DNA of 64,000 nucleotides. Source: Candidatus Binataceae bacterium. Lineage in GTDB: Bacteria; Desulfobacterota; Binatia; Binatales; Binataceae. Below, in pieces: positions 14,990 to 54,700 of this stretch. A program made the translations under genes and the position numbers. The first letter of the stretch is position 1. Each line of letters opens with the position of its first letter. Under the pieces are notes generated by a model. That model searched no databases. It was not told the DNA's origin and worked only from the letters and a program-made list of their open reading frames with translations. Location: assembly GCA_963722605.1 (NCBI GenBank), contig CAVRNO010000002.1:548090-612089 (forward strand), in the 5' to 3' direction.

Positions 14990-15850
14990 TCACGATAAGC
15001 TGCGCCAAAATTCCTGCAGGAGCACGCTCATCAGCCGGGGATGCTCTTCGGGAAAGAACAGCTTCGCGCGCGGCACCATGATCACCCGCCGCACGCCCCC
15101 GAAATTGTGCTTGAGCCAATCCACCGACTTGAGGTCGAAAAGGGGATCGGCGTCGCCCCAGACAACCTGAGCCGGCACGGTGAGTTGCCGCAGTTGCGGA
15201 GCGATCGAAGCCGTCACCCGCACGTTGGCGAGACTGGCAAAGCGCCGCACATCGAGGCTGCGTTGCTCCGACGACAGCAACGGCTCCAAGTACGTCCTGA
15301 ACGCCTCGTCGGGGATGCGCTCGGGATCTTCATAGACTGAACTGAACGCCTGGCGCGCGGCCGCCGGCGACTCCATCGCCGCGTTCAGCAGCGCGATTAC
15401 CGACGGGTCCGCGAACTGGCCGAGCACCGATTCCAGCATTGCATTGGGCCACAGGTCGTGGACCTCGCAGTTGGTCAAGGTGAGGCTGCGCAGCCGCGAC
15501 GGATATCGCGCCGCGAACACCTGGCTGATACCACCGCCGGTGTCGTTGCCGACCAGGTCCACCTGGGGCAACCCCAGCCGGTCGATAAAAGCGGCTATCA
15601 TCCTCGCCTGATGGTCGAATTCGAGCTCCTGACCGGCGGCGACTTCGGTGTAGCCCAACCCCATCAGGTCCAGCGCGATACATCGCCGCGTCGCAGCGAG
15701 GTCATCCAGCGCGCCGCGCCAGGCGAAGCCGTTTAAGGGAAAGCCGTGAACGAACAGGGCCGCCGGCCCGGCGCCATTTTCGACGTATGCGATTCGGCCG
15801 AACGCGGTCTCGGCGAATTTCCGCGCCTGATGGAACTCCGCTGCCTTCAT
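14990..15850 (-). CDS. alpha/beta hydrolase fold protein (haloalkane dehalogenase/epoxide hydrolase-like)
   Basis: HGFPLNGFAWR and nucleophile-elbow-like VGNDTGGG motifs. The likely start is MKAAEFHQ. Confidence 0.75.
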   Translation of the reverse strand: MKAAEFHQARKFAETAFGRIAYVENGAGPAALFVHGFPLNGFAWRGALDDLAATRRCIALDLMGLGYTEVAAGQELEFDHQARMIAAFIDRLGLPQVDLVGNDTGGGISQVFAARYPSRLRSLTLTNCEVHDLWPNAMLESVLGQFADPSVIALLNAAMESPAAARQAFSSVYEDPERIPDEAFRTYLEPLLSSEQRSLDVRRFASLANVRVTASIAPQLRQLTVPAQVVWGDADPLFDLKSVDWLKHNFGGVRRVIMVPRAKLFFPEEHPRLMSVLLQEFWRSLS

Positions 15851-16294
15851 CGCTGAATTGCCTCCTGCCGCGGCAGGGCTGGACCCTGCCCCGGTATTAA
15901 AACAAATCGGCACCGCCGCGGGATACGGGCGGAGTTTACCCTGAACACTCGGAAGGGACCTGTTAAGTGGAACAGACCGGGATGAGAACCTCGCGGATGT
16001 TGCTTATGCGGAACGGAGTATTGTCAACTGAAAGTGTTGAGGAATGGTTAAGCGCCTGAAGAGACGGCGCTATTGGAGCGTCTGTGGCGAAGACGAAAGG
16101 CAAAACTTGAGGTCGTCGGGAAGTCTCCCGGACTCAAATCTGGGCGTAAACTGTGTGTTTGCAACCCGCATGCCTTGGTGCCAGTATGCACCGGATTTCA
16201 AAATGGAAATTCCGGATTCCGGTTCAGTATGTTGCTCTCGAATCATTCTCGCCGTTTGGCTTGAACGGACACCTGCTTAGAGGAGGACTCATCC

Positions 16295-17911
16295 ATGGCT
16301 GTAGCGAAGGGTATGACCGATCCCGCCACTCCGGCTAGCGTGATGGTGGAGGACAAAGCACCAGAACCCATCTGGGATCCTACGCTTGGGATCTCCGTTT
16401 CCGCTCCGGGACCGGGCACCCCGAAGAATCGGCTGGTCGCGATCGGAGATTCACTCACCCAAGGATTTCAAAGCGGGGCGATCTTCAATACGCGTCTATC
16501 CTACCCGATGATTATCGCTTGGGAGATGGGCTGGGACGCTCAGCTAAGGGTTCCGAGTTATGCCGGGTTCGGAGGGCTCCCGTTCAATATTGAGTATATC
16601 GTTCGTCATCTCGAGCAGCGGTTGGGGCCCGAAACCAAATGGTGGGAGGTACCGCTTGCCTATTTCGAACTACGGCAGATGCTGGCGGAGATAGAAGACT
16701 GGTGGGAACGGGGGCCGGGCTCTCAAGATCCGCGCGCAGTCGGGATCAAGCACAACTTGGCCGTGTGGGGCTGGGATTTGCGTGACACCCTGGCCCGAAA
16801 CTACACCGTCGAGAACGCGCTAATTGTAAAACCTCACGATCCCTTCTTCCTTCCCATGGTTTCGAATGCCAACGAGCGAACGGCCCTTCGTGTGCTCGAT
16901 ACCGCATTCGACAACGGCCAAGCGCTAAATCCTCTGGAAGCGGCGAGAGTGCTGAGTGATGAGGGTTCAGTTGAATCATCCACGGGCGACGGGATCGAGA
17001 CGCTGATTGTGATGCTGGGAGCTAATAATGCGCTGGGCACCGTGGTCCAGCTAAAGGTAAATTGGAGCAAGGCTCCGGCTTACCAGAACCTTCAGCAGAA
17101 ATCCGCGTTCACGGTTTGGGATCCTGACCATTTCGCTGCCGAGTTGAACCTGGTGGTGGCCGAGGTAAAGAAGATCCGCGCCCGACACGTAATCTGGGGG
17201 ACGGTTCCGCACGTCACAATCGCGCCAATCGCGCGAGGCGTCGGCGGAGCAAAGGTGCGGACCGGCTCTCGCTATTTCCCCTACTACACTCGCCCGTGGA
17301 TATCCGACAGCGATTTCGATCCTTCGGACGATCCATATATTACAGGCGCTCAGGCTCGGGCAATCGACAGTGCGGTCGATCAGTACAATCAGCAAATTGT
17401 AAACGCAGTAAGAGCCGCACGAAGCGGCGCTGCGGGAGTACCGCCGCGCGATTGGTATGTGCTCGACGTCGCCGGCTTGCTCGACCGGCTGGCGTCGCGA
17501 CGTTACCTGGACGACCCTGCGGCGCGGCCAGCGTGGTGGACCCCGTACGAATTGCCGCACGCATTGCAGCAGCTGGCGCCGGTGCCTGATTCGCGGTTCT
17601 TCACGTCCGGGCCGCAAGGGAGATTGGCGGGCGGACTGTTTGCTCTGGACGGAGTGCATCCGACGACGATCGGATACGGAATAGTGGCGCAGGAAATAAT
17701 CAACATCATGCAGTTGGCGGGAGTTCAATTCTTCATGGGAGACGGTAACACGCAGCGGCGGGGGCCCGTACGAGTCGATTTTGATCGGCTCATTCGCGAC
17801 GACACTCTGATCAGTAGTCCGCCGTCTTCAGTGAAGTCCGATCTTGCCGTGATTGGGTGGCTCGACGAAAGGTTCGAATGTCTGAAGAACCTGTTCAGCA
17901 AGAAAAGTTGA
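16295..17911 (+). CDS. large SGNH/GDSL hydrolase family protein (538 aa)
   Basis: Block I VAIGDSLTQG and block V DGVHPT. A strong RBS (GGAGGA) sits 7 nt upstream. No signal peptide. GC is lower than the host (~58%). Confidence 0.7.
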   Translation: MAVAKGMTDPATPASVMVEDKAPEPIWDPTLGISVSAPGPGTPKNRLVAIGDSLTQGFQSGAIFNTRLSYPMIIAWEMGWDAQLRVPSYAGFGGLPFNIEYIVRHLEQRLGPETKWWEVPLAYFELRQMLAEIEDWWERGPGSQDPRAVGIKHNLAVWGWDLRDTLARNYTVENALIVKPHDPFFLPMVSNANERTALRVLDTAFDNGQALNPLEAARVLSDEGSVESSTGDGIETLIVMLGANNALGTVVQLKVNWSKAPAYQNLQQKSAFTVWDPDHFAAELNLVVAEVKKIRARHVIWGTVPHVTIAPIARGVGGAKVRTGSRYFPYYTRPWISDSDFDPSDDPYITGAQARAIDSAVDQYNQQIVNAVRAARSGAAGVPPRDWYVLDVAGLLDRLASRRYLDDPAARPAWWTPYELPHALQQLAPVPDSRFFTSGPQGRLAGGLFALDGVHPTTIGYGIVAQEIINIMQLAGVQFFMGDGNTQRRGPVRVDFDRLIRDDTLISSPPSSVKSDLAVIGWLDERFECLKNLFSKKS

Positions 17912-18154
17912 GCGGAGCAGATTTCGGCGATGAGGGAAATGGAGGAAAGGAGAAGCGTCTGCGGAATCCATTGGGAGAATGGCATTCCCGGGCGTTGCGT
18001 GCCCGCGCGAGGCGCGAAACCGACACCTCCCGGCGCTGCTGGAAACACCGTGGACCAAACCCGGCGTCGAACCTTGCGCGAGGCAGCGATTCGATCTATG
18101 CGGGCCGCTAAAATCGGAGAGTTAGAATGGAAATTCCGGTAAAGAAGTTCAGTT

Positions 18155-19090
18155 ATGTCTGGAGCCGTTGGCTTTACGCCTATCTACGCGCCCGGCGGGT
18201 CGACCGGCAAGGGAAGGTTTCCGAGAATGACCTCAGGTAAGCCAAAAACACTTTGGGAACGCATCGATCCTGGAACCATCGTTGCTTTACTCGCTTTGGT
18301 GCTTACGCAGCTACCGTCAGTGAGCGTGATGTGGGTGGCGGTTTTCAAACCACGGCTTGTGACAGTATCCTTTCCGAATAGTTCATTCTATGCGGATCAA
18401 ACGCTCGGCCACAGCTCAGTCGTGATCCAACTTTCGCTTCATAACGATGGTGGGCGGGTCGCAACAATTGGGCAACTCAACGCTATCCTGAGTGGACCCA
18501 ACGGCTTCTTGGTGGCCCTCAAGGCTGATGAGTATGTAGGACTCGAGAACCAAACTTCGATTCCCCTTGCCCATCCGATGTCATCGATTGTACTCAGGCC
18601 TGGCAACCGCTGGGACGCGATGGTCGGTTTCCTAGAGAAGATGTCTGACCAAGCGCAGTCCGACGTCGCTCGACTCCAAGGCGCCATGTTGCAGCCAGCC
18701 TTTAGCGCGCCATCTTTCACACCACAGACGCCAGTACCGCCGGCCAAACCAATTGTGAGCGAGGCAATTGACATGTTTAATCGCTCATTCAAGTGGAAAG
18801 CCGGGACTTACCAGCTATTCGTCCAAGTCAATTCGGAAGACGACGACAAGCAAATCGGACTGAACGGGGTTGAGTTCACGCTATCCCCGGAAGGCGTTGA
18901 GCAAATGCATTCAGTGGTTAATGGATACCAGTTCGGTAGGCTGAACAATCCGGGCAATCCAGCGACCAGCGCGCTGGTGCGCGCGCATGTCCTGAGCGCC
19001 AACGACGCGCTGGCCAAGTTTCGCGCGCTTCCGACGCCTTCCAATGCTGAATCTGGCGATATGCCTCTACAGCCAGCCAGCGGCATGTAA
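18155..19090 (+). CDS. hypothetical protein with an N-terminal TM anchor
   Basis: ORF with a hydrophobic segment (IVALLALVLTQLPSVSVMWVAVF). I did not recognise a domain. ~53% GC. Confidence 0.45.
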   Translation: MSGAVGFTPIYAPGGSTGKGRFPRMTSGKPKTLWERIDPGTIVALLALVLTQLPSVSVMWVAVFKPRLVTVSFPNSSFYADQTLGHSSVVIQLSLHNDGGRVATIGQLNAILSGPNGFLVALKADEYVGLENQTSIPLAHPMSSIVLRPGNRWDAMVGFLEKMSDQAQSDVARLQGAMLQPAFSAPSFTPQTPVPPAKPIVSEAIDMFNRSFKWKAGTYQLFVQVNSEDDDKQIGLNGVEFTLSPEGVEQMHSVVNGYQFGRLNNPGNPATSALVRAHVLSANDALAKFRALPTPSNAESGDMPLQPASGM

Positions 19091-19602
19091 TTACCCTCGC
19101 ATGAGAAACCGCGTTTAGTTGATCAAGGCCGTCCGGGGCGAAGAGGCGCGGGTGAGGGTGGCGACCCTTCAGGAGCCTCGGAGCCGCTCTCCTCAGTAGA
19201 ATAAGGCGCGAGGAATATCCTAGAAGATTGCCTTTCAATGTTTATGTCCATTATTTCCGTGACGCGGGACCCTGCGGCGCTTACTGACGGGCTAGCAGAC
19301 TATGCGGCGGCGTGATTGCCCCAAGCGCTACAGCCTTCACGCTGTTCGCTGCCCACGGGCGAATAGTTCGAGCTTGGGCAGGGCCTGGTACATGCGCTAA
19401 ATCATTTCGTAGAGGAGTTGGGGTCCTTCACTGCGCGCCGCAGAACCCTCGCCTACCGGCCGCAAGGCGGCCGGCCTCCTGTCCCGTGAAGTAACGGGCG
19501 AGGTGAGAATCGGACTCGCACACGGCGTAGAAAAGGATTCGGGGTCGCTGTGCTTCGGTTGGGATGACCCAAGAAACGCAGACCGCGCGGGCGGAGTTAC
19601 TA

Positions 19603-20403
19603 TGGAATATCGAATCACACCGGGCAGATTGGAAATCGGCGAGTTCTCGCTCTACTACGAGCGCGTCGGCGCCGGCCCGCCGATCGTCTTCATGCACGGG
19701 CTGGGCGGCAGCCATCTCTCATGGTGGCAGCAAGTGCCCTACTTCATGCGATCGTTCGAATGTATCACGGTTGACCAGCGCGGCTTCGGCCTTTCGCCCG
19801 ACCCCGACGGCCATTTCAATCGCGCGCATGCCGAGCGATCTCGCCGCCCTGCTCGACCATCTTAAGATCGATACGGCCGTGCTGGTCGGGCAATCGATGG
19901 GCGGATGGACGATCGCCGGCTACGCGCTCGAGCATCCCGAGCGCGTCGCGGCGATGGTGATGGCGGATACACCGGCGGGAATTTTCACGCCTGAGATGAC
20001 GTTCGAACGTCCGCGCGAACCGCTCGCCGTCGATGCGACGCCACCGATCGGGTCGCTGCCGACCTACGCCGCCGATTATTTTTCGCGGAGCCCCGAGATG
20101 GCGTTTCTGTACGACGAAATCCGGATTCATGGCGCGCGGCCTCCGGCCGACGCGGGCATGCGGCTAATCAGCCTGCGCTACGATCTGGACGCGGTGAAGC
20201 GACGCCTGACGATGCCGGTACTGTGCATGGTGGGCGAGGAGGACACGCTTATCAGGCCCCAGATCGTCAAGGCGCTGGCATCGGCGCTCCCGAATTCGCG
20301 ATTGCGCACGGTCCCCGGCAGCGGCCATTCGATCTATTTCGAGAAGGCCGCGGTCTTCAATCAACTGGTGCGCGATTTCCTCGTCGAGATCGGGCAGGGG
20401 TGA
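19603..20403 (+). CDS. alpha/beta hydrolase, apparent frameshift near 19818
   Basis: The N-terminus (MEYRITPG...FMHGLGGSHLSWWQQ) is in ORF 19503..19865. The remainder (GQSMGGW nucleophile elbow, ...PGSGHS) is in ORF 19564..20403. The stop TGA is the centre of a palindromic repeat. Confidence 0.65.
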   Translation, partial: WNIESHRADWKSASSRSTTSASAPARRSSSCTGWAAAISHGGSKCPTSCDRSNVSRLTSAASAFRPTPTAISIARMPSDLAALLDHLKIDTAVLVGQSMGGWTIAGYALEHPERVAAMVMADTPAGIFTPEMTFERPREPLAVDATPPIGSLPTYAADYFSRSPEMAFLYDEIRIHGARPPADAGMRLISLRYDLDAVKRRLTMPVLCMVGEEDTLIRPQIVKALASALPNSRLRTVPGSGHSIYFEKAAVFNQLVRDFLVEIGQG

Positions 20404-20458
20404 CCCCTGCACTCAGTATTAGGGCCGCGCTCCGTTGTCGCGCGCGGCCCCTGCCGCG
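20394..20458. repeat. REP/MITE-like nested palindromic element, copy A
   Basis: GCAGGGGTGACCCCTGC palindrome, then CAGTATTAGGGCCGCGC-TCCGTTGTC-GCGCGCGGCCCCTGCC. Shares core motifs with copies at 22993, 25290 and 54605. Confidence 0.7.
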
Positions 20459-20514
20459 GGCGAGGCATAGATGATGAAACGAAATAGCGCGGAATTCGTC
20501 GATTTGTTGGGTGA

Positions 20515-21326
20515 GTGACGCGGGACTATAATCAAGGCGTTATGGGTCGTATCGCAAATGCCCTGGCGGCCTTCGGGCTGGCGGCGGCTATCGCGGGATT
20601 GGCCTCCTGCGAGCCGGTGCAGAATCCTTATGGAACCGCCGGTGCGGCGAAAGTGGCGCCTGTGGGGATCTCGAGCCGCTCCAATTCGAGTCTGCCGCCG
20701 CCGTCGAGCGCGGGCACAGTTGCCGGCGGCACGATCGATTCGCCGGACAGCCAGGGTCTGTCCGATTATCTCAAGCATCACTCGCTGCCGCTGGTCGGGG
20801 CGCAAGTCGTCACCAGCCCGAGCGGCGGCAAGCAGGTAATTCTGTTCGGTTTCGTCGCAAGCGAGTTCGGCAAGGCTGACGCCGAGCAGAAGGCTCGCCG
20901 CTATCTGAACGATCCGTCGATGGTGGTGGACAACCGGATCAAGATCAGCCCTGAACTGGGCGGGGGCGGATCGACGGGCAACGGAGTTCCGTCCGCGAAT
21001 GGGGCGGCGCTGACGGCTCCGATCCGGGCGACGCGACCGGCTCGCTCCAGGATTATGAGAACAACGAACCGCCCGCCGCGCAGGCCTACCAGCAACAACG
21101 GCAGTATCAGCAGTATCAGCAATACAACAGCGCGCCGCCCAGCATGCTGAGCACCATCCTTCCGCTGCTGCTCGGCGGAGGCGTGTCGATGGGCAGCGGC
21201 GGCTTCGGCGGAGGTACGGGTGGATTCAGTTCCGGTTACGCGCCGGGTTACGGCAGTTACGGCTATCCAACTTATCCGCCGCCGATGCCGGGTTCCGGGT
21301 TCGGCGCGCCGGGATACCCCTACTGA
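20515..21326 (+). CDS. BON-domain lipoprotein with Q/Y-rich and G/Y-rich C-terminal tail; apparent frameshift near 21000
   Basis: Lipobox (LASC). BON-like segment (LKHHSLPLVGAQVV...VILFGFVASEFGKADAEQKARRYLNDPSMVVDNRIKIS). The tail (QAYQQQRQYQQYQQY...GGGVSMGSGGFGGGTGGFSSGYAPGYGSYGYPTYPPP) reads in the +1 frame and joins ORF 21144..21326. Confidence 0.5.
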
Positions 21327-21362
21327 TTGGGCCGCAGGCCGTCGATCGATCGGCCGCTCGTT

Positions 21363-22157
21363 CTATCTCGCCAGCTTGAACCGCTCGCCCAAGAACACCT
21401 GGCGCACTTCGTCGCTGGCGACGATGTCGCGCGGCTTGCCCTCGAACAAAATCTTGCCGGCGTGAATGATATAAGCGCGATCGATGATCGACAACGTCGC
21501 GTGCACGTTGTGATCCGACATGAGCACCCCGATGCCGCGCTCTTTGAGATAAGTTACGACGCGCTGAATCTCGATGACGGTGATCGGATCGATGCCGGCG
21601 AACGGCTCGTCGAGGCATAGGTACACCGGATCGAGCACGAGCGCGCGGGTGATTTCGACGCGGCGGCGTTCGCCACCGGAGACCACGCCCGCCTTGGACT
21701 TGGCCAGTTTGGCGATTCCGAGTTCGTCGAGCAGCGAATGAAGGCGGGCGTAACGCTCCTCTTCGGTAAGCGGCAGGGTTTCGAGCACGGCCAGCAGATT
21801 TTGCTCGACGGTCAGCTTGCGAAAGACGCTTGGCTCCTGCGGCAGGTAGGAAATCCCGCGGCGCGCGCGCTGGTAGAGCGGCAGAGTCGTGATGTCCTCG
21901 CCGCTGAACATCACTCGCCCGTGGTCGGGCTTGAGCAATCCGACCAGCATGTAGAAGGTGGTGGTCTTGCCCGCGCCGTTGGGTCCGAGGAACCCCACCA
22001 CCTCGCCCGGCTTGACGACTACGTTGACGTTGTCGACGACCGCGCGGCCGCCGTATACCTTGGTCAGGCCTTCACCGCGAAGGGCGAGCTTTTCGGCCTT
22101 TTCAGCCGTGGTGTTGTCGCCGATCTCGCCCGATTTAATGCTTCCGACGTTTGCCAT
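21363..22157 (-). CDS. lptB: LPS export ABC transporter ATP-binding protein
   Basis: Walker A (GPNGAGKTTTF), signature LSGGERRRVEI, and an LptB-type C-terminus (VRQVFLGERF). Confidence 0.85.
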   Translation of the reverse strand: MANVGSIKSGEIGDNTTAEKAEKLALRGEGLTKVYGGRAVVDNVNVVVKPGEVVGFLGPNGAGKTTTFYMLVGLLKPDHGRVMFSGEDITTLPLYQRARRGISYLPQEPSVFRKLTVEQNLLAVLETLPLTEEERYARLHSLLDELGIAKLAKSKAGVVSGGERRRVEITRALVLDPVYLCLDEPFAGIDPITVIEIQRVVTYLKERGIGVLMSDHNVHATLSIIDRAYIIHAGKILFEGKPRDIVASDEVRQVFLGERFKLAR

Positions 22158-22337
22158 TTTCGAACACCGCTTGGGTGACCATCCCAGAACTTATCGGCTT
22201 TGATCGGGATTTGGAACGTGTCGGTGCAATTAGCCGCGCGCCGTTCAAACACGATCGGGCGGCGCGCCGCGGCCGCTGTTATCGATGCGATCCAATTGCG
22301 GCTGTGCTAAATTGCGGCGCGATCGAGGAGGATCCCA

Positions 22338-22625
22338 ATGGTCAAAGGATTATGTTTCGCGAGCGGCGCCATCTTCGGAATCTTGCTTAGCTGTGCCGCG
22401 TGCATGCAGAGCCCGGCGTACAGCGGCGCCGGCTATTACGGTCCTCCTCCCGCACCTCCGCCCGGCAGCCATCCCGCAATCTCGCAAGCGATGAACGATC
22501 TGCAGCATGCGCGCTACGTGCTGCAGGCCGAGGCCGCAAGCGATTTCCGAGGGCATAAGGCCAACGCCGTCGGCTTCATCGACAATGCGCTCGGCGAATT
22601 GCAAATCTGCATGACGATGCCGTAG
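22338..22625 (+). CDS. small putative lipoprotein
   Basis: Signal peptide with lipobox (ILLSCAAC), Pro-rich linker. Confidence 0.4.
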   Translation: MVKGLCFASGAIFGILLSCAACMQSPAYSGAGYYGPPPAPPPGSHPAISQAMNDLQHARYVLQAEAASDFRGHKANAVGFIDNALGELQICMTMP

Positions 22626-22699
22626 CCGCGGCGCACGCGGCTGCTCCCGGGCGCGCTCCGAAGCGACCGGCGATCGGCGCTTTTGCGCGGCGCGATGGG

Positions 22700-23002
22700 A
22701 TGCTACTGGATAGGATCGTGGCCAACGAAAACGAATATGACAGCGAGCGCTTTCCCGGAAATTTCTACCAGGGGATGATTCTCACGCTCGACCGCGCCCG
22801 CGGCCGTGGCGTGGTGCGCTCGCATAGCGGCAAGGAGATCCCGTTCGAGTTTCCCTTCGTGGCCGTAGTGGGCGCGCCACTTGGCGGCAAGATGCCGGGG
22901 ATCGATCTGATCCGCGAAGGCGATATCGTGGGCTTCGATGTCGGCTGGACCTCGAAGGGACTGCGCATCACGACGCTCCATCCTCGGCAGGTGCAGGGGT
23001 GA
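22700..23002 (+). CDS. hypothetical protein (100 aa)
   Basis: ORF only. It ends ...RQVQG with the TGA at 23000..23002 inside repeat copy B. Confidence 0.4.
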   Translation: MLLDRIVANENEYDSERFPGNFYQGMILTLDRARGRGVVRSHSGKEIPFEFPFVAVVGAPLGGKMPGIDLIREGDIVGFDVGWTSKGLRITTLHPRQVQG

Positions 23003-23104
23003 CCCCTGGCCGTTGGCGGCGGCAGCGCAGTATTAAGCCGTTGGCAGGGGCCGCGCGCGACAACGGAGCGCGGCCCTAACGGTGGGTGCAGGGCTCAGCC
23101 CTGC
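22993..23104. repeat. REP/MITE-like composite palindromic element, copy B
   Basis: GCAGGGGTGACCCCTG core. It also has CAGTATTAAG, an inverted copy of the copy-A arm (GGCAGGGGCCGCGCGCGACAACGGAGCGCGGCCCTAA), and a terminal GTGCAGGGCTCAGCCCTGC palindrome. Confidence 0.7.
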
Positions 23105-23739
23105 TGCTGCTTGCGCTGGTACATCAGCCACTGCCTGACGCCCAAGGGGTAGAGCTCGCCCATGATTTCGTAGCCCTTGGAACTGTAGAACGCGACGTTG
23201 GCCTCGGTCCCGGTCTCGAGGTAAACGCCGGCTATCTCAGGCCGCACCAGTGCCTCCAGCGCGAGCCGGTCGAGCAACGCCTTTCCGTAGCCTTTGCCCT
23301 GAAAATCCGGATCGACCCCGAGGGTTTGCAGATACAGATGCGGCTCCTTGGGATGGTGCTGTGCAAGCACACCGACCATATTCATCGCGCGGACCATCCC
23401 GCCCCATCCGACTCCCCGAATCAACCGCGGCAACTGTGGCAGCCCGGCGGTGATCAACCCAAGCACGCCTGAATGGCCCACACCTTCGGTGGCCGCGGCG
23501 GCAACCACGCGTCCATTATGGACCACGCCGAAGACCGGCTGTCCGTTCCGACGCTCCACACCCAGCTGCGCGCGAAACATATCCGCCAGGTGCTCGGCGC
23601 GCGCGACCGGCTCGGTAATATCCGGAAGGATCGCCTTGAAGGCCGGGTCGTTGATGAAGGCGCGGCCGAGCGCGACGGCGGCCTGCTCGTGCTGCTCGGG
23701 GTACAGGCTGGTTACGATCGGTTTTCCATTTTCAGGCAT
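23095..23739 (-). CDS. GNAT family N-acetyltransferase
   Basis: Acetyl-CoA binding motif (LQTLGVDPDFQGKGYGKALL). The likely start is MPENGKPIV. It ends ...QQQG with the stop (TCA on +) at the centre of the GCAGGGCTCAGCCCTGC palindrome. Confidence 0.7.
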   Translation of the reverse strand: MPENGKPIVTSLYPEQHEQAAVALGRAFINDPAFKAILPDITEPVARAEHLADMFRAQLGVERRNGQPVFGVVHNGRVVAAAATEGVGHSGVLGLITAGLPQLPRLIRGVGWGGMVRAMNMVGVLAQHHPKEPHLYLQTLGVDPDFQGKGYGKALLDRLALEALVRPEIAGVYLETGTEANVAFYSSKGYEIMGELYPLGVRQWLMYQRKQQQG

Positions 23740-23817
23740 TTCTTTTTTTCCTCGATTCAATCCGACGGCCTGGTGAGAGCGCGCCCGACTGCGTCGCGCC
23801 ATCCGGCGAGCAATTCT

Positions 23818-25261
<1,444 letters not shown>

Positions 25262-25289
25262 CGTCGTATTCTCCCGCGCCAATGTTACA

Positions 25290-25367
25290 GCAGGGGTGAC
25301 CCCTGCACCCAGTATTAAGGCCGCCCGCCGTTGGCGGGCGCGACCCCTGCCAACGGTTTAATACTGC
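25290..25367. repeat. REP/MITE-like palindromic element, copy C
   Basis: GCAGGGGTGACCCCTGCACCCAGTATTAAGG...CCCCTGCCAACGGTTTAATACTG. The CAGTATTAA / TTAATACTG arms are inverted. It lies in the divergent glpK/gshA intergenic region. Confidence 0.7.
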
Positions 25368-25482
25368 GCCGCCGTCGCTCACGGCCCCCCCGCCCGCCTT
25401 GTGCTTGCCTCGTATGTTTGCTGACGCCATTATACCCGCTTGGCGGAGCCTCTTCTCAGGCAGTCGCGCTTGGCTTTGATTC

Positions 25483-26847
25483 ATGAGTGAGTTGCTCGAA
25501 AAGAAAGAGGATCTAATCCGCTACTTCCGGGATGGCGGCAAGCCGCGCGCAAAATGGCGGATCGGCACCGAGTACGAGAAAGTGCTGGTCCGCAGCGCCG
25601 ACGGCACCGCCATACCCTACTCCGGTCCCGCCGGCGTCGAGGAGCTACTGCGCCGGACGGCGGCCGGCTACGGCCTGGAGCCCGAAGACGAGCACGGCCA
25701 CATCATGGCGCTCAAGAGCGCGCGCGCGGCGATCACGCTGGAGCCGGGCGGTCAGATCGAGTTGTCCGGCGAGCAGTGCGACACGATCCATTGCGCCCAC
25801 GCAGAGTTTGCGCTCCACGTGCGCCAGCTAGTCGATGTAGCCGGCCAGATCGGCGCGACCGTGCTTGGGCTGGGGATGCAGCCTTTGAGCCGCATCGACC
25901 AGATCGAGCTGCTGCCCAAGGCCCGCTACCACATCATGTACCCGTACATGAAGCGCACGGGGACGCTCGGCCAGCGGATGATGAAGCAGACTGCGGGCGT
26001 GCAGGCCAACCTGGACTATAGCGACGAGGCCGACGCGATGCGCAAAATGCGGGTCAGCATGGGTATCGTGCCGATCCTCTACGCGATCTTCGCCAACTCA
26101 CCGCTGAGCGACGGCGGCCTCAACGGTTATCACAGTTTTCGCGGACACATCTGGACCGACACCGACAAGCAACGCACCGGGGTTCCCGAGTTCGTGTTTC
26201 GCCCCGGCTGTTCGTTCGAGGATTACGCCGAGTACGCGCTCGACGTGCCGATGTACTTCCTGATTCGCAACCATGAGTACATCGATCTCACCCCGCCGCC
26301 GGGCCTCACCTTCCGCCAATACTTGGCCCGCGGATACGGCGCCGAGCGCGCCACCGTTGACGACTGGACCAATCACCTGACCACGATTTTTACCGAGGTC
26401 CGGCTCAAGCAATACGTCGAGGTGCGCACCGCCGACAGCCAGCCGCCGGAGTTCATGCTCGCGCTGCCGGCCCTGCTCAAGGGGATGCTTTACAACGACG
26501 ATTGCCTCGAGGCAGCGTGGGACCTGGTCAAGGGATGGAGCTATCCGCAGCGCCTGGAAATCACGGACGCCGCTCATAAGATCGGGCTCGACGCCCGTGC
26601 CGGAAAAATCAAGCTGCAGGCGCTCGGCTACGAATTGCTCCAGATCGCGGCCAAGGGATTGGAGCGCCAACAGGCGTTGAACATTAGCGGCCAGGATGAG
26701 AGCATCTATTTGTTGCGCCTGATGGACCTGGTCCGCAGCGGCAATAGCCAGGCCAGTGTTGTAATCGGCCGCTGGAAGGGTGAATGGAACTACGACATGG
26801 GCCGTCTAGTGAAGGGATGCGCTTACAAGGCTGAATCGATCGTCTGA
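25483..26847 (+). CDS. gshA: glutamate--cysteine ligase, GCS2 (plant/proteobacterial) type
   Basis: GCS2 family similarity across ~450 aa (IGTEYEKVLV, HIWTDTDKQRTG, FTEVRLKQYVEVRTADSQ). Confidence 0.8.
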   Translation: MSELLEKKEDLIRYFRDGGKPRAKWRIGTEYEKVLVRSADGTAIPYSGPAGVEELLRRTAAGYGLEPEDEHGHIMALKSARAAITLEPGGQIELSGEQCDTIHCAHAEFALHVRQLVDVAGQIGATVLGLGMQPLSRIDQIELLPKARYHIMYPYMKRTGTLGQRMMKQTAGVQANLDYSDEADAMRKMRVSMGIVPILYAIFANSPLSDGGLNGYHSFRGHIWTDTDKQRTGVPEFVFRPGCSFEDYAEYALDVPMYFLIRNHEYIDLTPPPGLTFRQYLARGYGAERATVDDWTNHLTTIFTEVRLKQYVEVRTADSQPPEFMLALPALLKGMLYNDDCLEAAWDLVKGWSYPQRLEITDAAHKIGLDARAGKIKLQALGYELLQIAAKGLERQQALNISGQDESIYLLRLMDLVRSGNSQASVVIGRWKGEWNYDMGRLVKGCAYKAESIV

Positions 26848-46079: not shown

Positions 46080-46250
46080 CTACGCCCCGCTTCTTCGCGC
46101 GCGCACGACGCGCGGATGCCCCGCGAGACCGTTTATCACAGAGACGGCCCGCAAGCCCGCTTCCTCGAACAGCTTCGCCACCGCCGCCCCCTGCCCCACC
46201 CCCATTTCCACGATCAGCTCGCCATCGCGCGCAAGGATATCGACGCTCAT
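46080..46250 (-). pseudogene. duplicated remnant of the prmC 3' end (56-codon ORF with its own ATG)
   Basis: 46093..46236 is a near-copy of 47071..47218, with ~4 substitutions plus a divergent ~30 bp stretch that has an 11 bp indel. It translates to ...GELIVEMGVGQGAAVAKLFEEAGLRAVSVINGLAGHPRVVRARRSGA*, and the stop abuts murA. Confidence 0.5.
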
Positions 46251-46251
46251 T

Positions 46252-47052
46252 CTACGGGTGGATTGCGGGCAAACTCATTCCGTGAGCATCAATATGAACT
46301 GTCCGAATGATCGAAAGCAGTGGGAACTTTCCGTCGTGCGGCGGCGGAACAGATTCAGCGTAGTCACTTCCCCCCATGCCCGTGGAAATCCTGCAGGGGC
46401 GAGGCTGCAATATGTTTATCGCCCAGTGCCATGCCGCGCGGCCACAGTCGATCCGCAGCAGAGCCTCATGCCCGTCTAACTGCATGGGGCTGAGCGACGA
46501 GCAGACGGGGCGGCCTGTCTCCGGGGCAGTCTTAATTTCATCTTCGTGAAGTCGCGACTGAAATTCAAACGCCTTCTTGATTTTCTCGGCCGCCACTTCT
46601 GGAGTCGTGCTCTCACTATGGACGAGAACCCGCAGCACGAGCTCGCCCTGGGTGACCGGAGTGTCACCGACCAGATCGACTACCTTGGCCAAGTCTGACG
46701 GCGGATTGTCGAGACCGAAGGGATCCAAGACAGCAGGAGTCCGGAACTCTCTCTCGTTCACCCGCAGCGACGGCGGGTAACGAAATGAAAGCCCTGTGGC
46801 TGGGTCGTGGAACTCTCGCCAACCACTTGTGCCGATCCGCGCCTGTTCGGTGGGAACCGCAGCCGGCATCGCGGTCGCCGCGACCATCTCCAGCGGTTCT
46901 GGGCCCGCGTCAAACCGGATGCCCGTCGGGCCGGGGTATAAGATCAATGCGGCTGGGCGTTCAGCCGCTTCGACTTGCTGCGGACCATTGCACAGTGCCG
47001 CACAAATGGCGATGCAGAGAAAGAAAGCGGCGGATGTGTGTCCAAATATCAT
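46252..47052 (-). CDS. hypothetical secreted protein (266 aa) inserted between prmC and its duplicated 3' end
   Basis: Signal peptide (FFLCIAICAALC). No recognised domain. The 3' part is lower in GC. Confidence 0.5.
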   Translation of the reverse strand: MIFGHTSAAFFLCIAICAALCNGPQQVEAAERPAALILYPGPTGIRFDAGPEPLEMVAATAMPAAVPTEQARIGTSGWREFHDPATGLSFRYPPSLRVNEREFRTPAVLDPFGLDNPPSDLAKVVDLVGDTPVTQGELVLRVLVHSESTTPEVAAEKIKKAFEFQSRLHEDEIKTAPETGRPVCSSLSPMQLDGHEALLRIDCGRAAWHWAINILQPRPCRISTGMGGSDYAESVPPPHDGKFPLLSIIRTVHIDAHGMSLPAIHP

Positions 47053-47063
47053 TGCTTTCGTAC

Positions 47064-47942
47064 TTAAACCCTTCGCGCGCGCACGACGCGCGGATGCCCC
47101 GCGAGATCGTTTATCACAGAGACGACCCGCAAGCCCGCTTCCTCGATCAGCTTCGCCACCGCCGCTTTCGTTGCATCCCCCTCCCCCACTTCCACGATCA
47201 GCTCGCCATCGCTCGCAAGATGCCGCGGCGCGCCCGCTGCAATTCTGCGAAAGATGTCGAGCCCTCCCGCTCCCGCGCTCAGCGCAACGCGCGGCTCGAA
47301 GGCGCGCACCTCGGGTTCCAGCGCGGCGATCTCCGCGTCATCCAGGTAAGGCGGATTGGAGACTATCAGCTCGAAAGACTCAAGCGCCGCTCCGCCGTCC
47401 AGGACGTCGAAGCAGTCGGCGCGCCGGAACGTCACCCGATCCTCGACCCGATGCCGCCGCGCGTTGCGCGACGCGATCGCAATCGCGCCGGCGGAAATTT
47501 CCACTGCCGTCACGCGAACGCGCCGAGCGTTGACCGCGATTGCGATAGCGATTGCCCCCGACCCGGTGCCGATGTCGAGCACGCGCGCGTCCGGCGCTCC
47601 GGCGATAAACTTGAGCGCCGCGTCAACGACTAGCTCGGTCTCGGGCCGCGGAATCAGGACCGCCGGACTTACCTCGAAATCGAGCGAGTAGAATTCCTTG
47701 CACCCCAGGATGTACGCGACCGGCTCGCGTTTTTCGCGCCGCACGATCATCGTCTCGAATTTGTCTAGCGTCGCGGGCGATAGATCGATCGAACCCGTGA
47801 TAGCGGCTTCGCGCGAGACTCCCGCCGCCGCGGCAATCAGAAGTTCAGCGTCGAGCCGCGCCGATTCGATGCCGCTTGCGGCGAGCCTGCGCGCGGCCTT
47901 GTCTATCTCCTCCAACGCGCGCCGCGCGGGCACCCGGTTCAT
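47064..47942 (-). CDS. prmC: release factor glutamine N5-methyltransferase
   Basis: HemK/PrmC motifs (VLDIGTGSGAIAIAIA, IVSNPPY). It immediately follows prfA. Confidence 0.85.
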   Translation of the reverse strand: MNRVPARRALEEIDKAARRLAASGIESARLDAELLIAAAAGVSREAAITGSIDLSPATLDKFETMIVRREKREPVAYILGCKEFYSLDFEVSPAVLIPRPETELVVDAALKFIAGAPDARVLDIGTGSGAIAIAIAVNARRVRVTAVEISAGAIAIASRNARRHRVEDRVTFRRADCFDVLDGGAALESFELIVSNPPYLDDAEIAALEPEVRAFEPRVALSAGAGGLDIFRRIAAGAPRHLASDGELIVEVGEGDATKAAVAKLIEEAGLRVVSVINDLAGHPRVVRARRV

Positions 47943-54604: not shown

Positions 54605-54635
54605 CCTTAATACTGGGTGCAGGGCTCAGCCCTGC
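54605..54635. repeat. REP/MITE-like element, copy D (partial, inverted orientation)
   Basis: CCTTAATACTGGGTGCAGGGCTCAGCCCTGC is the reverse orientation of the GCAGGG..CCCTGCACCCAGTATTAAGG core. An adjacent 11 bp palindrome GCGGAACCCAC/GTGGGTTCCGC at 54645..54668 sits between convergent genes. Confidence 0.65.
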
Positions 54636-54700
54636 CCAAGGAGGTGCGGAACCCACGGTGGGTTCCGCATTGAATAAAATGATTTACCCTTCCCGCCGCG

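Follow-up and report, generated by a model that had tools for sequence, protein, structure and literature searches.

A mosaic hairpin repeat of the Binataceae whose loop provides stop codons and Gln-Gly tails at gene ends

Why should neighbouring genes of one bacterium end in the same two residues? In a stretch of 64,000 nucleotides from a Candidatus Binataceae bacterium (assembly GCA_963722605.1, contig CAVRNO010000002.1, positions 548,090 to 612,089; hereafter the window), three different genes end in Gln-Gly (QG), and each takes its stop codon from the centre of a short GC-rich palindrome. A preliminary description of this locus proposed that a palindromic element had entered the 3' ends of these genes and rewritten their C-termini. 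The observation is real, lies well above chance and was in its main point correctly interpreted. We consider it highly probable that the palindrome belongs to a mosaic hairpin repeat of the Binataceae which, on entering the last codons of a gene in frame, donates a terminal QG together with the stop.

Reading of the sequence and the translations agree on the positions of the three palindromes and on their loop TGA as stop codon of a hydrolase, of a 100-aa open reading frame (ORF100) and of a GNAT acetyltransferase. The features concerned are, in window coordinates:

19602..20403, plus strand: alpha/beta hydrolase (3-oxoadipate enol-lactonase-like), ending ...VEIGQG with its stop at 20401-20403
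20394..20410, plus strand: palindrome GCAGGGGTGACCCCTGC, perfect; CAG-GGG-TGA gives the hydrolase its Q, G and stop
20394..20464, plus strand: short element of palindrome, ACTCAGTATTAG, GC hairpin and inverted half-palindrome (CCCCTGCCGCGGGCG), about 71 nt by comparison with an empty site
20465..20477, plus strand: putative decayed remnant of the displaced native hydrolase tail and native TGA, from alignment to locus L123
22700..23002, plus strand: ORF100, conserved in Binataceae (332 homologues, no Pfam domain), ending ...HPRQVQG with its stop at 23000-23002
22993..23009, plus strand: right-end palindrome GCAGGGGTGACCCCTGG, mismatched at one terminal position; ORF100 stops at its TGA
22993..23104, minus strand: full-length 112-nt element with a palindrome at each end and a long internal hairpin
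23088..23104, minus strand: left-end palindrome GCAGGGCTGAGCCCTGC, read on the minus strand; its TGA is the GNAT stop
23095..23739, minus strand: GNAT N-acetyltransferase, ending ...QRKQQQG with its stop at 23095-23097 (ancestral ...MYQRKR to ...MYQRKQQQG)

The palindrome, GCAGGG-S-TGA-S-CCCTGC (hereafter PAL), is a 17-nt hairpin unit with a 7-bp GC stem and the 3-nt loop TGA. Its description as a perfect inverted repeat holds at 20394-20410 but not at 22993-23009, and the three palindromes, all present as described, make up only a short and a double-ended element, since 22993 and 23088 mark the opposite, inverted termini of the single 112-nt element. The window contains six sites that match the motif with at most two mismatches (12 strand-matches), against a chance expectation of 0.21 ± 0.43 strand-matches in 100 shuffles, none of which reached 12. 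The additional copies, at 15873, 25290 and 54619, had escaped the preliminary description, and none of them is a stop codon.

The hydrolase offers a direct comparison of a filled with an empty site. Among 120 hydrolase homologues, the end GQG was found besides the query only in P0241 (99% identical), from the 97.5%-identical strain L121 (L numbers denote loci), while most of the other homologues whose C-terminus aligns have the end ...GYAK, ...GYAR, ...GYPR or ...GY. At the empty site of L123 the sequence reads gagatcggCTACGCCAAATGAaacgaaa; the window has gagatcgg, the 71-nt element and then GCATAGATGATGAaacgaaa, and the sequence downstream is common to both. This comparison of L123 with the window places the element three codons before the native hydrolase stop, where YAK and stop give way to QG and stop. 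The alignment thus shows that the C-terminus ...EIGYAK was rewritten to ...EIGQG by an insertion of about 71 nt, and positions 20465..20477 are probably the decayed leftover of the displaced native tail and TGA.

The second element lies between two convergent genes. Most GNAT orthologues end in ...MYQRKR, and 11 of 120 in ...QRKRQG; in P0032, translation of the PAL in frame 1 gives the end ...QRK-AGVTPAPSI. Orthologues of ORF100 share ...TT(I/L)xPR, followed by DAAS, TAAS, QG, QQG, QVQG, QGQG, QGQGQG or QGQEQGQG. P0152 is a case of read-through. In L118 and L123, which lack the element, the convergent stops are 1 nt apart (...cgcTAGgTCAcga...) and the proteins end in ...QRKR (GNAT) and ...PRDSAS (ORF100). 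In the window, the 112-nt element occupies the entire gap and gives both genes their stop codons. This pair of states shows a double-ended element at a former 1-nt convergent junction, where it provides each gene with a new stop.

Five filled forms of this junction carry a PAL or PAL-derived TGA in frame, namely the window, L047, L121, L127 and L126. They differ in detail: the PAL beside ORF100 is degenerate and of the CTGAG type in L121 and of the GTGAC type in the window, the internal part is flipped in L127, and additional modules are inserted in L126. L128 carries a different composite, in which GNAT reads the PAL in frame 1 (the P0032 end). The orientation of the internal part of L127 (1789-1900), opposite to that in the window (22993-23104) and in L047 (1063-1175), suggests either that this part was flipped between the inverted PALs at the ends, or that the insertion arose independently. 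At the ORF100 junction the left PAL arm GCAGGG is also found reiterated in frame (L126 1860-1905, L127 1775-1805; proteins P0123, P0124, P0126 and P0129), and such reiterated-arm tails read QGQG, QGQGQG, QVQGQG or QGQEQGQG in different Binataceae.

Element-free orthologues of the hydrolase, GNAT and ORF100 do not end in QG, as the proposed rewriting had implied. The claim that the palindrome supplies the last two residues and the stop stands for the stop and for QG as it is now encoded, with a reservation for the Q: the empty GNAT/ORF100 site of L123 contains cggCAGGcgg at the junction, that is, CAGG was already there before the element, and the Q may in part have pre-existed. A tblastn search among the sampled loci for element-free orthologues of other QG-ending genes yielded one informative family, which is in line with the three window genes. 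This 908-aa protein ends in ...LIRA where no element is adjacent (L093), in ...LIRQG at a PAL (L084), and in L103 in ...LIRPVGTGSQC, with the stop within the element head. The entry of the element into gene 3' ends is therefore seen in orthologues and empty sites of the three genes and in a further family elsewhere.

What kind of element is this? A conserved asymmetric flank of 12 nt, ACCCAGTATTAA, termed the head, accompanies the PAL at every copy, and PAL and head form a 29-nt core that is joined to several other hairpin modules on either side. The loop TGA is read on the strand entering the core from the PAL side, and a TAA in the head on the strand entering from the opposite side. On the inbound strand the loop is TGA in 155 of 164 flank-oriented copies and TAA in five more, and the stem-closing pair covaries (G-C 157, C-G 40, non-paired 7). 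At least three recurrent module architectures were found across the family loci, together with tandem and inverted PALs; one common form is the element of about 112 nt with an inverted PAL at each end. Terminal inverted repeats are present as inverted PALs in the long form and as PAL plus inverted half-PAL in the short form, whose right end was found again in L021, L091 and L079. Folded as RNA, the PAL reaches -12.1 kcal/mol with UGA in the loop, and the 112-nt element -75.6 kcal/mol (z = -3.1). The flank on the complementary strand is TTAATACTGGGTG-CAGGGG, with GGTG/GGGTG inside and no GTAG. A search with Rfam 15, including SECIS (the selenocysteine insertion sequence), at gathering thresholds returned only tRNAs in the window and 18 element-rich loci. 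The PAL is the unit of a REP/BIME- or REPIN-like mosaic repeat family, found in many copies in Candidatus Binatus/Binataceae (Binatota).

Other abundant hairpin modules accompany the core (L120 3640-3940 and many loci, e.g., L005, L007 and L062). One consists of gtgaaaccc-N4-gggtttcac or gcggggctgcgcgccccgc, followed by cttccttcgg, the complement of which (GAAGGAAG/AAGGAGGTG) is Shine-Dalgarno-like; further ones are gatgcgggacttcgtccctgttagaa, tcgcaaaatggcgaggacgccattttgc and a three-fold ttccccctttcc..ggaaagggg repeat in L120. These accompanying modules had no Rfam match.

The distribution of the family was followed by scanning one genome per species with the core pattern and a free loop (GCAGGGNNNNNCCCTGCACNCAGTATTA), which gave at least 117 stretches from about 30 assemblies. 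Among the matches listed, nearly all come from Candidatus Binatus, Binataceae or bins of the same lineage filed as "uncultured delta proteobacterium" (Binatota). The sample analysed here comprises these pattern-selected loci (at least 117) and the window, and is element-enriched by design. It contains 206 PALs in 947 kb, only three of which lie within called genes, and those gene calls are doubtful. Intergenic regions bearing a PAL have a median length of 257 nt compared with 70 nt for the others, and a PAL is present in 25% of convergent intergenic regions versus 14-15% of tandem or divergent ones. No PAL occurs in L118, L119, L122 and L123, Binataceae loci of about 28 kb reached through orthologous proteins, whereas two are present in L120, which stems from the sample that also gave L122. 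Lineages thus differ strongly in copy density. The same junctions of element and gene recur in independent assemblies, including short-read metagenome-assembled genomes (MAGs; UBA7539, palsa bins and SPRUCE bins). Some core-bearing contigs are filed under a "Candidatus Acidiferrales" MAG or a "Verrucomicrobiota" MAG (L038, L040, L045, L048, L067 and L089, DATNLS...; L081, JBEKBA...), and the repeat may flag mis-binned contigs in those MAGs.

How often does a copy end a gene? The idea that most copies lie in frame with gene ends is not borne out, as only 14 of 196 PALs (7%), three of them in the window, have a loop TGA at which a called gene stops. Supplying a stop codon is a recurrent minority outcome and not the purpose of the element. 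Offset 0 is nevertheless the mode of the stop-to-loop distance, and the next peak (10 cases) consists of stops that abut the PAL or overlap it by one base (TA|G). Restricting the view to edge PALs, i.e., outermost modules with a non-repeated outer flank, leaves 64 copies, of which 34 have a gene 3' end within 150 nt on the side that they face. The stop is supplied by 13 of these and abutted by 10, while three lie at 2-20 nt and eight farther away, so that 23 of 34 are located in or against a stop codon. The head side behaves similarly, with the TAA of cTTAATACTGGGT serving as stop in three genes. Genes entering a PAL stop at its TGA in 14 cases, against two doubtful read-throughs (binomial p of about 1e-5 versus equal frames); the alternative frames would append nine residues (xRGDPCTQY before a stop) or more than 20. 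QG is the second commonest C-terminal dipeptide in the sampled loci (21 of 938 genes, 18 of the 21 with GCAGGGSTGA), counts which, since the sample is element-enriched by design, are not genome-wide frequencies. The family itself, its distribution and restriction to one lineage, the pairs of empty and filled sites and the changed C-termini are all directly observed.

The remaining copies in the window illustrate locations away from stop codons:

15873..15967, plus strand: PAL with a different inner module and a degenerate loop CTGGA (TGG), not a stop codon; 22 nt upstream of the start of a minus-strand hydrolase gene
25290..25399, plus strand: third long copy, the right PAL of which is decayed (84% identity to 23008-23106), not a stop codon; in a divergent intergenic region, 28 nt upstream of where the FGGY kinase gene starts
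54605..54668, minus strand: core (PAL and ACCCAGTATTAAGG) with the hairpin module gcggaaccc...gggttccgc, not a stop codon; in a convergent intergenic region, 7 nt beyond the TAA stop of the PfkB/SIS gene, its PAL (54619) about 20 nt beyond it

The 15873 copy marks the start of a strain-specific segment of 3.7 kb (15851-19584), which stands where the 97.5%-identical strain L121 has 254 intergenic nt, and has a GC content of about 58% compared with 63-64% in its flanks. Its open reading frames (16295-17911, 538 aa; 18155-19090, 311 aa) had no Pfam match. Relative to intact orthologues, the window shows one frame break in the hydrolase (~19832) and two in the FGGY sugar kinase (~25076-25086 and ~23830-23840), caused either by indel errors of a long-read MAG assembly or by pseudogenisation; in L121, GNAT and FGGY are called as a fusion. 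Elsewhere in the window, direct repeats about 980 nt apart (46093-46235 and 47071-47219; 95 nt at 97% and 42 nt at 93% identity) lie inside the adjacent minus-strand reading frames 46252-47052 and 47064-47942, which look like tandem paralogues.

On this reading, once insertion or recombination has brought an element into the last codons of a gene in a suitable frame, CAG-GGN-TGA makes the protein end in QG. Owing to the built-in stop in frame, such copies could persist at gene ends, and selection on the proteins would keep the frame through later rearrangements. In-frame reiterations of the left arm in steps of six nt (QG, QGQG, QGQGQG) fit with such frame-keeping by selection, and off-frame copies, which are rarely seen, were presumably removed by it. 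We infer from this that the repeat is essentially selfish or neutral and that its frame bias is due to selection.

At both empty sites, about 13-19 nt of native DNA are replaced by the element, and TA, TAG or TGA stand immediately 5' of a PAL only where a gene ends there. Microhomology is found at one junction (cggCAGG in the empty site of L123), and several loci carry 10-nt direct duplications of the form GCAGGGGTGA-GCAGGGGTGACCCCTGC, a half-PAL followed by a full PAL (L011 7047-7075; L054 ~3743 and ~4875; L064 ~5518; L084 ~4747; L074 ~100-130). L074 additionally holds a 26-nt module between two copies of GCAGGGCTGA. These arrangements may be footprints of insertion into the PAL loop or of slippage. 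Together with the exchange of PAL type between the window and L121, microhomology and duplications are a hint that recombination or template-switching took place and that copies exchanged sequence with one another.

Several points weigh against this account. No RAYT/Y1 transposase came up in the reading frames of at least 90 aa from the window and 123 loci (about 1 Mb), either by phmmer with E. coli RayT as query (--max, E <= 10) or by HUH and YxxNP motifs. Neither the hydrolase nor the GNAT/ORF100 empty site shows a target-site duplication, and the outer PAL flanks share no target consensus; spread through recombination or gene conversion is therefore as plausible as transposition. The gene map of the loci comes from a home-made codon-bias caller. 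The pile-up of 23 of 34 edge copies at stop codons exceeds what simple random insertion followed by selection would give, and could reflect a function or an insertion preference. Finally, the element at the GNAT/ORF100 junction is kept across species whose proteins are 74-93% identical, which fits selected retention as well as neutrality.

In the main alternative, the hairpin is a cis-element of benefit to the host, placed at stops for its function, with the QG tail as a by-product. It might stabilise mRNA 3' ends, terminate transcription in a non-canonical or bidirectional manner, or modulate the termination of translation as E. coli REPs near stop codons do. The distances of the gene-facing edge copies (13 at and 10 abutting the stop, only three at 2-20 nt), the conservation of the GNAT/ORF100 element in several species and the stable, covarying stem all speak for such a role, as does the survival of the in-frame TGA through inversion, arm reiteration and exchange of PAL type. 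Since the hairpin starts in the last codons, every terminating ribosome would have to melt it, and at the RNA level it may affect mRNA 3'-end stability or termination. There is precedent in E. coli, where REPs at most 15 nt from the stop are described, in the account of Liang et al. (2015) given in PMC5082802, as causing ribosome stalling and trans-translation. However, copies are found 5' of gene starts and within divergent intergenic regions, too, and 127 of 191 PALs are internal to clusters, mostly 21-140 nt from a stop or with no inbound gene end within 150 nt. Moreover, the close relatives L118, L122 and L123 keep intact genes without the element at the same sites, and protein-level selection alone predicts the keeping of the frame. 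We regard a host function as unlikely, and retain it because the sharp pile-up at stop codons is not fully explained.

Termination of transcription directly at the stop codon, as suggested in the preliminary description, found no support in the sequence. No T-tract follows the stem, where ACCCAGUAUUAAGG stands instead, and a scan for intrinsic terminators across 15000-26000 called eight terminator-like sites, no PAL among them. A canonical Rho-independent terminator was accordingly rejected: the PAL is a GC hairpin without U-tract that the scan did not call.

A more specific proposal, and in our estimate a rather improbable one, sees the 29-nt core as a "stop-capped" mobile palindrome, with inward-facing stops (UGA in the loop, UAA in the head) that were kept for colonising last codons and spacer-free convergent junctions, the loop stop giving the host a lever on termination. 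If true, it would explain why two thirds of the gene-end-facing edge copies sit in or against a stop, and a loop stop within a hairpin of -12 kcal/mol could act on termination efficiency, ribosome rescue and mRNA 3'-end decay.

Recoding of the loop UGA, as selenocysteine or by programmed read-through with the downstream GC hairpin acting in a SECIS-like manner, would mean that there is no true QG end. The hydrolase frame indeed remains open for about 27 codons past the TGA, with a stable hairpin some 20 nt further on, but element-free orthologues terminate within 0-4 codons of the same position, the downstream frame is repeat sequence common to hundreds of non-genic copies, and long open frames are expected at 63% GC. 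Given also the lack of any SECIS or other Rfam match in the window and the 18 loci, we consider recoding extremely improbable. An ancestral or convergently selected QG around which the palindrome arose, or an origin by chance or assembly artefact, is just as hard to credit: assembly errors do exist, as the indel-type frame breaks in two window genes suggest, and CAGG was already at the junction of one empty site, but the shuffles exclude chance, identical junctions recur in independent assemblies, and orthologue comparison refutes an ancestral QG. The arrangement, copy number and orientation of the copies, together with the comparison of orthologues, led us to reject SECIS/read-through, a transcription-factor regulon and CRISPR. 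Integron attC sites were rejected as well, as the genes hosting the element belong to the syntenic core and run in both orientations, and copies lie also 5' of genes; by reading of the sequence, the RYYYAAC...GTTRRRY core motifs are not matched exactly.

The family has practical uses. As an abundant repeat of the Binatota, an uncultured phylum widespread in soil, it aids annotation by making QG tails and repeat-derived "hypothetical" small reading frames recognisable, and it may also help in binning checks and strain typing. It further offers clean natural before-and-after pairs, in which a small repeat enters a convergent junction of 1 nt and both genes stay intact through the donated stops. 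Many genes with their stop in the same stable hairpin loop form a natural series for studies on termination, rescue by transfer-messenger RNA (tmRNA) and 3'-end decay. Current understanding is not overturned, as several other phyla are known to harbour repeats that alter the 3' ends of genes; the Binatota family itself is previously undescribed.

The comparison with REP, RPE and Correia-type elements made in the preliminary description proved apt. A close likeness is to the REP/BIME/REPIN sequences of Proteobacteria (E. coli, Pseudomonas, Stenotrophomonas), which are mobilised by RAYT (PMC2817692). Shared features are the short, imperfect GC-rich palindrome next to an asymmetric flank that is conserved, a probably high copy number, a preference for extragenic sites at 3' ends and in convergent regions, lineage-specific sequence, mosaic combinations of motifs, inverted doublets that form a long hairpin, and the lack of target-site duplication (PMC2817692). 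The Binataceae element differs in its phylum, in a flank of the form ...TACTGGGTG-stem instead of a GTAG/GTGG head, in that RAYT was not found in the roughly 1 Mb searched, and in a loop that is a conserved stop codon, with many edge copies in or against stops; its flank GGGTGC is similar to that of the Smal3 REP of Stenotrophomonas maltophilia (PMC2817692). With MITEs it shares terminal inverted repeats but not the target-site duplication.

Small structured repeats that rewrite gene 3' ends are also known from Coxiella burnetii, where many functional genes share the last 1-50 bp of their 3' ends with a QMITE1 or QMITE2 copy, which alters the composition of tails with little change in protein length, including the C-terminus and stop region of enhC in one strain (Wachter et al., 2018, PMC5896051). 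QMITEs differ by terminal inverted plus direct repeats, an unrelated sequence and a stop that is not fixed in a hairpin loop. In-frame fusions to chromosomal reading frames, some extending or replacing 3'-terminal coding sequence, are described for Correia elements (CREE) of Neisseria, RPEs of Rickettsia, BOX/RUP, ERIC and BRE (Delihas, 2011, PMC3184786). Among these, RPEs are internal insertions that are translated, and Correia elements bring promoter and IHF sites with them and leave a duplicated TA target, whereas the Binataceae element, compared with Correia, RPE and BOX, donates only two residues (QG) and a stop. Br-REP1 of Bradyrhizobium, a three-palindrome repeat between convergent genes with about 200 intergenic copies, resembles it in that module abundance varies among relatives, but lies in untranslated regions, has not been reported to supply stop codons and differs in sequence and phylum (Hahn et al., 2016, PMC5082802). 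Particular to the Binataceae element are thus its phylum, the stop codon fixed in the loop, stops at both edges of the core, and a double-ended copy that caps both genes of a convergent pair.

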